A DNA stretch of 64,000 bases from Escherichia coli (GTDB lineage Bacteria; Pseudomonadota; Gammaproteobacteria; Enterobacterales; Enterobacteriaceae): the NCBI RefSeq assembly GCF_048403405.1, contig NZ_CP183129.1, one strand, 5' to 3'. The number at the start of each line of letters is the position of its first letter. Position 1 is the first letter of the stretch. A program made the position numbers. Below are positions 30,601 through 33,191 of the stretch, in pieces.

Positions 30601-33191
30601 CCAGAAATTAATGAACTTTATACACATGGCCCTCATTATGCTTATTTAATTGAAGAACAAGGAAACAGTGAATTTAATACCGAAAAAAGCAAAAGTATTG
30701 AATTATCATCTGTTATTGAGATTGGCAATTTCTCTAATAAACTTAATTTGTATAAAACAGACTACAGTGGTTTTAAATTTAGACGATTAACGGGTATCAG
30801 TCGTGGTGCTGGTCCTGTTATGGAATGGGATGACACCGATCTTGAAACAAAAGGATTAGAATATGAATTTAAATATTTATATGAAATGCCTCATGATCAC
30901 AATCTAACATTTACACTATTTGGTGATTTTGTCGAAAATAAAAGCAAAAGAAAACTGTTTATTGCAGGTCACTATTTGCCAAATTTACCTAATGAAAAGC
31001 ATGGTATCAGTATTTATTACCAACATGATGAATTAACTGCATTTAGTAGTGCAACTTACTATAAAAAACAAAAAGAAAGCGGTGGGTTAATGTATGGTGG
31101 AGATATGGCCTTTCCTTCCTATACGTTAGTTGATGCGGGGATTGGCAAAAAATACCACCTTGATAAGGTAGATGTTTCGGTTGATTTTATTATTAATAAT
31201 CTCACCGATACTGAAGCAAGACCTGCATCTTCTCAATTGAAATATTTAGTCCCATTACCGGGTCGAAATTATGGGATAAATGTCAAAATTGATTTTTAAT
31301 ATATTCTGATTTAATAAGATATAAAGTAAGTGAGGTACTCTATGGGTGCCTCTTTTTTTTATAATCATGCACAATTAACTTGAAGATGCATGTTTTAGGG
31401 CTCTATCACATTAAGGTAAGCACACCTGTTTTAATTCTAGACATTTTTTGAGATCTCGGTGCCAACAAGATGTTTCTATCAGTACCAATCCCCAATTCAT
31501 TACCACAAATCTACTTTTCACCAATACGGAGTAAAGGGCGCTAAGTTCGGCTATGCAGGGACCGATTTTTCCTCCTGTGTGCTTTTTGTTCCCGTATCAG
31601 CTTCCGGTTAATCATTTCACGGCACAACCGGTCCCGTAAGGGTGAAGTGCACGCATGCTGCACCCTTGTGGGCCAGAACGATGCCGAGAAAGCGAACTGT
31701 CAGGCGATACGAAGATGAAAATCACATTACTGATGGAGAAAAAACTATGATCACTTCCTTGCATACTCAGACAAGTGCCTCTAACACCGCAACGGCGACC
31801 AGCGTATCCCCGCTGGACCCGTCAGGCTCCTCAAAAACGAAATTTTCCAAAACCAGAACCGATATTTATCAGATCGTTACCGACCTCATCATTACCACAC
31901 TGGAAGTAGGCGTTAAACCCTGAGTGTGTCCGTGGCAGCGCGTACCGGGTATGTCCGGCATGCCTTCCAACTACGCTACTGGCACAGCCTACAGCGGGTG
32001 CAGTGAATCAGAATGAGGATTCAGTGATTCCTGCTGGATGACATACAAACAGGCTAGGGCAGAAGGTGCGCAAGTTCGTAAGGACTAGCACGGCATGACC
32101 GCCATTTTTTATACCATCCTGGAGAAGGAAAACGACACCGGAGAAATTGACCATATCCCGATGCTGAAAACCTTTGTCGTGTTTAATGTCGAACAAATTG
32201 ATGGCCTCTCACTGACGGCAGATACCGTTGCCCCACAAGCGACGTTTGACGCGTTGCCACAGGCTGAAAATCTGTTCTGTAACAGCGGTGCTAACATCAT
32301 TGAGAAAGGACAAAACGCCTTTTTCATGCCATCAACAGATGAGGTTTTGTTACCTGAACGTCGTTTTTTTCCGATGCCGCTAGCTTTTATGCCACGGATC
32401 TGCATGAGATTGTTCACTGGAGCGATGGCAAAAGTCGCCTGAACCGCGAAATGAAAGGAAGATTTAGCAGTGAAAATTATGCATTTGAAGAGTTGATCGC
32501 CGAGCTGGGAAGCGTGTTCCTGATGGCGGATCTGGGGATTGTCGGATAGGTTCAGCACGAAAGTTATATTGCTTCTTGGCTGAAAGCACTGAAAAACGAT
32601 AAGCGCTATATTTTTAAAGCCGCCAGGCAGCATCGAAAGCGCATCGTTATATGATGGATAAGGTCTGAACAGAGGAATAAGACGCCGCAAAGGAATGCGG
32701 CCTTAACCTTATTTTTGGATCTGGCAGAGTGACATAGATTTCAATTTCCCTGCGAATGCGGACGGTAAAGAGCCCGCTCATCCTGCAAACTACATTTTTA
32801 TACTGTTGATAATAGGGTATTCCTTAGTCATGGTAATAAGGCTCAGAAAGCCATATTTAGCTTTCCATAATGGAATATTATCGCCACCTTGAAGAATTCT
32901 TTGTTCCGGTTACAGAATCTGCATTTTTATTGAGAGCAAGGGATTTAACCTGCCACGGCGTGGTCAGATTAAGGATGTGGGCATAGAGCGATTTTTCGGC
33001 CATTAATTTGACGCTGATGCTTACTTTAAATTGTTATTATTTTTTGCCCACTTTTTTAATCTTCCATTCGCGTTGGTATAAGGCGAAGATGTATTAAATG
33101 AGATCATTCGGCCCATCGTCCATTTTTTGTATCATGGTTCACCATACAAAACATCATCAGTTCGTTCATCAATAAGCTTTTGTAGTGGTCA

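Follow-up and report, generated by a model that had tools for sequence, protein, structure and literature searches.

Two clbS-like segments in an ICE of Escherichia coli: probable relics of an ISL3-family IS related to ISEc53

ClbS, encoded by the pks island, is the colibactin self-resistance cyclopropane hydrolase (PDB 6anr), which hydrolyses the cyclopropane warheads of colibactin; protection against this compound is also conferred by diverse ClbS-like proteins (PMC8907063). On E. coli chromosomes and plasmids, clbS-like (dfsB/DUF1706) genes adjoin a single ISL3 transposase, and such ISL3-linked genes have been proposed to act as mobile immunity genes (Maklin et al., bioRxiv 10.1101/2025.11.17.686825).

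The ISL3-family element ISEc53 consists of a left inverted repeat (IR), a stretch of ~100 bp, a clbS/dfsB-like passenger gene, a 17-bp spacer, the transposase gene and a right IR. A full copy, residing in a prophage of E. coli AR_0081, is ~1.88 kb long (1883–1885 bp, depending on a terminal G); it is bounded by GGGTCTTCCCC... inverted repeats, with an 8-bp target duplication (ATAAATAT) on both sides, and codes for a 172-aa ClbS/DfsB protein and, behind it, a 406-aa ISL3 transposase with the full domain set (DDE_Tnp_ISL3). ISEc53-type copies are present in 683–1388 of 5426 E. coli genomes, in up to 26 places per genome, and occupy chromosomes, plasmids and prophages.

The DNA analyzed here (referred to as the window) is a 64,000-nt stretch of contig NZ_CP183129.1 of E. 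coli (RefSeq assembly GCF_048403405.1). It represents an ICE of the SPI-7/PFGI-1 type, with genes for an integrase, ParA, DnaB-PI, ParB, an STY4528-family replication protein, topoisomerase III and PilL2, and also contains a siderophore-like NRPS/PKS block; no tRNA gene was found in the window. This organization fits the published description of ICEPm1, and the element probably belongs to that type. Matches to the window were identified in 13 of the 5426 complete E. coli genomes (e.g. M24, accession no. NZ_CP080120.1), all of them at least 99.4% identical to it over the regions queried. In the ICE of E. coli M19 an Rpn-family gene is followed directly by pilL, whereas in the window these two genes are separated by 42 kb of DNA (21.6–63.6 kb), which therefore constitutes an accessory block. 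A 277-bp direct repeat flanks the block, which contains, among other debris, an ArdC pseudogene and an AlpA gene accompanied by a DUF2857 fragment.

The original prediction placed a second, truncated copy of a ClbS-like module at positions 32870–33180, about 85% identical to the 3′ end and downstream region of a clbS-like gene located ~18 kb away. Direct BLASTN comparison of the two regions, designated copy A (14918–15699) and copy B (32815–33180), confirmed its presence. Positions 32904–33179 of B align with 14965–15239 of A (224 of 280 positions identical, 80.0%; E = 2e-63), and a weaker collinear block (73%) joins 32806–32876 to 14909–14978. Overall, 32815–33180 is homologous to 14918–15239; the right edge of the segment, at 33181, was placed exactly, but the left edge runs on for ~55 bp beyond the limit given, to 32815. 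Homology stops at the IS ends described below and the flanks are unrelated. The predicted identity holds for the 3′ coding part of clbS (140/163, 85.9%), but not for the downstream DNA (about 72%), where identity is 71.7% in the spacer plus the 5′ remnant of a transposase gene and 72.5% in the final 50 bp, which comprise the IS end. The two copies do occupy different contexts, as had been proposed: A lies in the replication backbone of the ICE and B in the 42-kb accessory region, with which it may have arrived. An ArdC-bearing ICE, H14, was considered as an empty-site reference for B, but it is of a different ICE type and offers no empty site.

The region of copy B is AT-rich (38% GC) and contains T-runs, so a chance or generic low-complexity similarity had to be considered. 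This explanation can be dismissed almost entirely: the region is not of low complexity, the local alignment score of A and B (163) far exceeds that obtained with shuffled sequences (n = 200; mean 15.7, maximum 25), in agreement with the BLASTN E value, and both the reading frame and the match to the DUF1706 profile are conserved. The homology is thus real.

All features of the two copies and of the neighboring IS elements are encoded on the minus strand. The clbS/dfsB (DUF1706) fragment of copy B (33021–33180) comprises only codons 120–172, as judged from its translation (KLIDERTDDVLYGEP*YKKWTMGRMISFNTSSPYTNANGRLKKWAKNNNNLK*), Pfam and tblastn. An in-frame TGA, replacing TGG, is located at 33132–33134. 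The fragment covers positions 118–166 of the 166 of PF08020, with the stop inside, and is thus no full-length DUF1706 domain; it shares 85% amino-acid identity with residues 120–167 of copy A (tblastn). The PGAP annotation in RefSeq likewise describes 33021–33177 as a ClbS/DfsB pseudogene (“internal stop; incomplete; missing N-terminus”). Next to this fragment (32902–33020) are a 17-bp spacer and the first 34 codons of a transposase gene, whose ATG is at 33003. When the ISEc53 transposase was used as a tblastn query, its residues 1–34 were found at 33003–32902 (79% identity, E = 5e-11) and residues 386–406 at 32908–32846. The last 21 transposase codons and the right-end IR accordingly occupy 32815–32908; the IR pattern matches exactly at 32815, where its tip is GGGTATTCCTTAGTCATGG. 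At the nucleotide level, 32902–33179 is 84% identical to the DNA of ISEc53 spanning the 3′ end of clbS and the 5′ end of the transposase gene (BLASTN), and the last 95 nt (32816–32910), including the right IR, match ISEc53 at 69–75%; in the comparison with the ends of ISEc53 and of L011, another full ISEc53 copy, identity is 71–75% (score 38–46, compared to a shuffled maximum of 1). The internal-deletion junction lies near 32905, and ~1.05 kb of the transposase gene is missing.

On its other side, copy B is cut by an IS911/ISEc52-like element of the IS3 family (33181–35668), whose relatives align from 33181. This position starts with an IS3-type terminus (TGTAGTGGTCAAC). In E. coli, the alignments of thousands of IS911/ISEc52-type copies begin at query position 82 (i.e. 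33181), with 83–87% identity, while clbS homologs align only to query positions 1–80 (up to 33179). The IS3-family element has a right IR (TGTAGTGGTCAACTAAAACTGGCC) at 33181–33204, orfA at 35342–35644 and a split orfB. It is interrupted by an element of the IS110 family (33405–34690), recognized from its annotation and from the break in IS3 homology at 33404/34691; the IS110-family protein matches the Pfam models DEDD_Tnp_IS110 and Transposase_20. An intact 1252-bp relative (L051, positions 1801–3052) aligns, over its positions 1801–3004, to 33181–33404 and 34691–35668 with 82–87.5% identity. The element in the window has therefore lost 48 bp at its left end, the left IR among them, and now adjoins a fragment of a DUF2857 gene; a single copy of its IR is present in the window. 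Neither the 5′ part of the copy B clbS gene nor the left IR of the ISL3 element was found beyond the IS3-family element, where 35669 onward corresponds to the DUF2857 fragment and then the AlpA gene. Since the missing 5′ part does not lie across the IS3-family element, and this element is itself truncated, a further deletion must have occurred, which was probably IS-associated.

Copy A (14918–15699), identified by BLASTN comparison with ISEc53, is an ISEc53-like element of 782 bp that has both its ends but no transposase. Positions 14969–15698 match ISEc53 from the IS tip through the left end and the clbS part, with 90% identity (660/734). Position 15699 is the end of the left IR (...GAGGAAGACCC), and the right IR, which has decayed, starts at 14918 (GGGTTTTTCTTATCC), so that IRs homologous to those of ISEc53 are present at both ends, whereas in copy B only the right one remains and the left end is deleted. 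The last 50 nt of A show 67–71% identity to the right ends of ISEc53 and L011 (score 15–19, shuffled maximum 5), and the right IR matches the left IR of the same copy at only 13 of 30 positions. The frameshifted 5′ remnant of the transposase gene (14968–15059, with the ATG at 15059) was recognized by aligning A, ISEc53 and B with one another and by tblastn, in which residues 4–26 are 65% identical to the ISEc53 transposase (E = 0.002). A full ISL3 transposase is absent from both copies, A retaining residues 4–26 and B residues 1–34 and 386–406. Scans for promoters and terminators and against Rfam revealed nothing specific in either copy.

The clbS/dfsB-like gene of copy A (15078–15596) is intact and encodes a protein of 172 aa with a full-length match to DUF1706 (PF08020 positions 1–166 of 166, E = 5e-52); no NCBIfam model matched the clbS-like protein. 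In comparisons with known structures, it matches PDB 5cof (E = 5e-103), whose sequence is near-identical to that of the ISEc53 passenger, and ClbS itself (6anr, E = 3e-53). Alignment with the latter revealed that Tyr55 is conserved in A within a V-S-Y55-L motif. A role of Tyr55 in ClbS was reportedly described by Tripathi et al. in 2017, and we take this tyrosine to be the catalytic residue. Copy A carries a Pro134Leu substitution in the G-x-P-W-Y motif, where all ten other full-length homologs compared, as well as ClbS, have Pro. The dN/dS ratio of the ORF is 0.35 relative to ISEc53 and 0.05–0.15 relative to more distant homologs, and Proteus mirabilis ATCC 29906 and Providencia stuartii encode the protein without a single difference (100% identity). 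By analogy with the protective ClbS-like proteins, the passenger gene of this IS most likely encodes a ClbS-type colibactin-inactivating immunity protein, and only copy A could still supply such a function.

A megablast search with copy A returned ~700 further E. coli records at 80–90% identity, in up to 26 places per genome, annotated as ClbS/DfsB followed by an ISL3-like element ISEc53 family transposase. Besides L011, a GTDB scan with the copy A protein returned chromosomal clbS-like genes without a transposase, none of which is the parent of copy B; in several Enterobacterales chromosomes (Proteus, Citrobacter, Hafnia), the left IS end and clbS have been kept without the transposase. By the usual ISfinder convention, copies of the same IS share at least 95% nucleotide identity. 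Both A (90%) and B (84%) fall below this value in comparison with ISEc53 and thus represent lineages related to, but distinct from, this element. A full-length IS that shares at least 95% identity with either copy was not found, and the parents of A and B are deduced from ISEc53 at these levels of identity.

Copy A is located within an array of 36-bp repeats in the replication module of the ICE, with three repeats to its left and one to its right. In the ICE of the mouse strain E. coli M19, the flanking backbone is 94% identical, and the corresponding site is empty: twelve tandem 36-bp repeats lie between the STY4528-family gene and the PFL_4669 gene, and no clbS is present. Copy A is therefore an insertion into the replication module. 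No 8-bp target duplication is recognizable at A, as the flanks (TAAAAATT and TTAACTAT) match at only 4 of 8 positions.

Taken together, 32815–33180 is very probably a non-functional relic of an ISL3-family IS related to ISEc53, and copy A a second, independently acquired relic, with the caveat that the transposase remnants supporting this identification are short. The “downstream region” of both copies corresponds to the start and the end of a transposase gene, fused by a deletion of ~1.05–1.1 kb, plus the terminal IR. The history of copy B may be reconstructed as follows: (i) an internal deletion of ~1.05 kb would have left the first 34 and the last 21 transposase codons, (ii) an IS911/ISEc52-like element of the IS3 family would then have landed in the clbS-like gene at codon 120, and (iii) a later deletion would have removed the left end of this IS, the 5′ two-thirds of the gene and the left IR of the ISL3 element, with the TGG-to-TGA mutation presumably completing the decay. 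The proposed destruction of one copy by IS insertion is thus correct insofar as an IS911-like terminal repeat abuts B, but it is incomplete, because a deletion, a nonsense mutation and the loss of the transposase were also involved. Copy A would be a relic of the same IS lineage, separately acquired; its insertion site is the array of 36-bp repeats beside the replication gene of the ICE. It, too, is without a transposase, but its clbS-like ORF is intact.

The original prediction also held that the ClbS-like module is a recurring, possibly selected cargo unit, i.e. that it was duplicated or recruited twice by the ICE under selection and that one copy was simply destroyed by IS911 insertion. In favor of such a view are the presence of two copies in one ICE, the intact ORF of A, which has evolved under purifying selection (dN/dS 0.05–0.35) while the transposase and the right-end repeat decayed, and the retention of clbS-like genes without a transposase in several Enterobacterales. 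These observations lend some indirect support to a hint of selection, but as an account of the two copies the proposal is very improbable and has been largely refuted. A and B cease to be homologous at ISL3 terminal repeats, and what lies downstream of the gene is transposase debris; the two copies differ by 14–29%, as against a nearly invariant ICE; and the far side of the IS, itself a truncated element, does not contain the other half of B. Since both copies contain ISL3 terminal repeats and transposase remnants, transposition explains the recurrence without invoking a selected cargo unit: the “module” recurs by virtue of being, or having been, a transposable element.

The identity of A and B (71–86%), set against an ICE conserved at the level of at least 99.4%, points to independent, old acquisitions rather than to duplication within the element. 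In the three-way alignment of A, ISEc53 and B (285 columns), B alone differs in 30 columns and A alone in 14, while A and B agree against ISEc53 in 6, which fits two old, separately decaying copies. The position of the deletions counts against fully independent decay, which does not predict that the two copies share a proximal breakpoint within 3 nt. It is conceivable, though unlikely, that A and B both derive from a single transposase-less, IR-bounded clbS cassette (resembling a mobile insertion cassette or MITE), which a resident ISEc53-like transposase would have moved in trans to two sites in ICEPm1-type elements, with A later losing a further 42–45 bp next to the junction. In both copies the transposase gene is broken at the same proximal position, after ...GCAGRTTYYGTWAC; if breakpoints were distributed uniformly over the ~1.2-kb gene, we estimate the chance of such a coincidence at ~0.5%. 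The 50 bp kept of the 3′ segment in A fall within the 95 bp kept in B, the extra loss could be due to a GGAA microhomology in B, and a cassette of this kind would fit the units of left IR and clbS without a transposase in Proteus, Citrobacter and Hafnia chromosomes. If it existed, an ISL3 element would have given rise to a self-contained, hitch-hiking cassette for colibactin immunity, which would have spread among Morganellaceae and other Enterobacterales. Several observations stand against it. A third transposase-less copy with the junction was found neither in complete E. coli genomes and plasmids nor, for the B-type junction only, in JGI metagenomes; a target duplication is absent at A; copy A resembles full-length ISEc53 (90%) more than it does B (80%); and the columns in which A and B agree against ISEc53 are as few as 6 of 285. 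Separate acquisition of two ISEc53-related elements is therefore the preferred explanation.

The truncated copy B occurs in identical form in the 13 E. coli genomes, in P. mirabilis and in four metagenome contigs, and the arrangement of B with the IS3- and IS110-family elements is also identical in P. mirabilis (accession no. CP021694) and other contigs. An intact second copy of the B type was not found in complete E. coli genomes, plasmids, proteins or metagenomes. Complete E. coli genomes contained only the 13 truncated copies, the next best match being ISEc53 (84.7%); plasmids contained no place covering at least 80% of the query; and a protein search with the 52-aa B fragment yielded only partial proteins and a 31-aa ORF in P. 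mirabilis. In JGI metagenomes, searched with the B-type junction pattern only, 4 of 19 matches were real, and in all of these B is cut at the same base. The 100% conservation of the fragment in all carriers, together with the calling of the 31-aa ORF in Proteus, could be taken to mean that B still functions, either through a 31-aa C-terminal peptide (ORF 33021–33116) or in a regulatory or terminator role. The probability of this is minimal. The conservation merely mirrors that of a near-clonal ICE; the fragment begins at residue 120, so that residues 1–119, including Tyr55, are gone; it contains no conspicuous promoter-like or terminator-like signal and gave no Rfam match; and it is surrounded by pseudogenes and IS debris. 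Copy B cannot be functional.

Since published work has already connected clbS-like genes with an ISL3 transposase, the finding is an ordinary one and its direct importance is small: a supposed selected and duplicated cargo module becomes two decayed copies of a passenger-carrying IS. There is a gain for annotation, as the DNA downstream of both clbS-like genes, unannotated in RefSeq, can be assigned to transposase and IR debris. The analysis also places an IS-borne clbS-like gene with an intact ORF in an ICEPm1-type element common to Proteus, Providencia and E. coli. If the copy A protein is active, it would be relevant to competition with colibactin producers. The locus adds examples of a passenger gene that outlives its transposase.

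In comparison with known systems, the copies in the window most closely follow ISEc53, with which they share the order of parts and the form of the IR tip (GGGTNTTCC). They differ from it in lacking ~1.05–1.1 kb of the transposase gene, and in the case of B also the left 460 bp, as well as in the absence of a target duplication at A. They have in common with the clbS-like/dfsB genes described by Maklin et al. the gene family and the association with an IS, but are located in an ICEPm1-type ICE common to Proteus and Providencia and have lost the transposase. With ClbS (6anr), copy A shares the DUF1706 four-helix-bundle family, with a full-length match and Tyr55 kept; unlike ClbS, it lies outside a pks cluster, is only about half identical and has a predicted activity, while copy B comprises the last 53 residues only, with a stop codon. 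The IS3-family element that truncates B resembles IS911/ISEc52 in its orfA/orfB layout and TG-initiated terminal repeat, but it has diverged too far to be equated with IS911, an IS110-family element splits it, and its left 48 bp are missing. Finally, copy A resembles mobile insertion cassettes and MITE-like IS derivatives in being an IR-bounded element with a passenger gene and no transposase; it differs from these in that E. coli genomes, plasmids and metagenomes yielded no copies beyond the two diverged ones, the IRs are decayed, a target duplication is absent and there is no sign of mobilization.

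The element A locus (14918-15699), a transposase-less relic of an ISEc53-like insertion sequence with an intact clbS-like gene (15078-15596), is located within an array of 36-bp tandem repeats (GTGTTTCCACTGGAAACAGTGCTCAAAACTTAACCG) with a palindromic core, placed between a STY4528-family replication gene and a PFL_4669 gene. The window contains three copies of the repeat plus one past element A (14811-14914 and 15716-15734, respectively). Two copies were identified in P. mirabilis ATCC 29906 and approximately 12 in the related ICE of mouse E. coli M19 (L049, 2590-3030). The repeats appear to form an iteron or origin array of variable copy number. 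Downstream of the topoisomerase III gene, the window also contains a sequence (19772-19932, plus strand) that matches the Rfam STAXI RNA motif (RF01728) over its full length at 121 bits.

Codon 134 of the clbS-like gene of element A (15195-15197) encodes Leu in place of the Pro of a G-x-P-W-Y motif, a residue conserved in ClbS and in all 10 of the other full-length homologs compared. Proteus mirabilis and Providencia stuartii both carry this same allele of the ICE-borne protein.

ClbS-like genes are also present in the chromosomes of Proteus spp., a Citrobacter sp. and Hafnia psychrotolerans (loci L012, L013, L015, L017 and L029), and none of these five loci has a transposase. A decayed ISEc53-type left inverted repeat is still recognizable approximately 100 bp upstream of each gene, falling exactly at the ISEc53 end, and at the Hafnia locus the homology extends 48 nt into the transposase gene. 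Flanking sequences differ among genera, but two Proteus species share theirs. The chromosomal genes look like old, domesticated IS insertions.

Copy B (32815-33180), the truncated clbS pseudogene relic, is immediately preceded by an ArdC-family antirestriction pseudogene (31747-32690), which, according to the RefSeq annotation, carries a frameshift and an internal stop. The IS3-family element that cuts copy B (33181-35668) contains, within its orfB, an IS110-family element (33405-34690) encoding an intact transposase of 354 aa. No target duplication is evident around the latter, since the IS3 homology picks up again at the same base. Just past the truncated IS3-family element, positions 35665-36060 hold an intact gene for an AlpA-family regulator and a DUF2857 gene fragment that covers the N-terminal part. 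A complete DUF2857 gene is present in the ICE backbone (12505-13095). The fragment may derive from a second island-type element that became part of the cargo region.

Copy B, the ArdC pseudogene and the IS debris form part of an approximately 42-kb accessory region, together with TonB receptors and an NRPS/PKS cluster. This region is flanked by a 277-bp direct repeat (21596-21872 and 63593-63864; 86% identity) and is missing from the M19 ICE, where the Rpn-family gene directly precedes pilL, which suggests that recombination at the Rpn-pilL junction brought in the cargo block.

The reference copy of ISEc53 (L002, E. coli AR_0081; 2848-4730) is inserted in a lambdoid prophage, with immunity-region genes on one side and the Q antiterminator region on the other. 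ClbS-like proteins reportedly block colibactin-triggered prophage induction.
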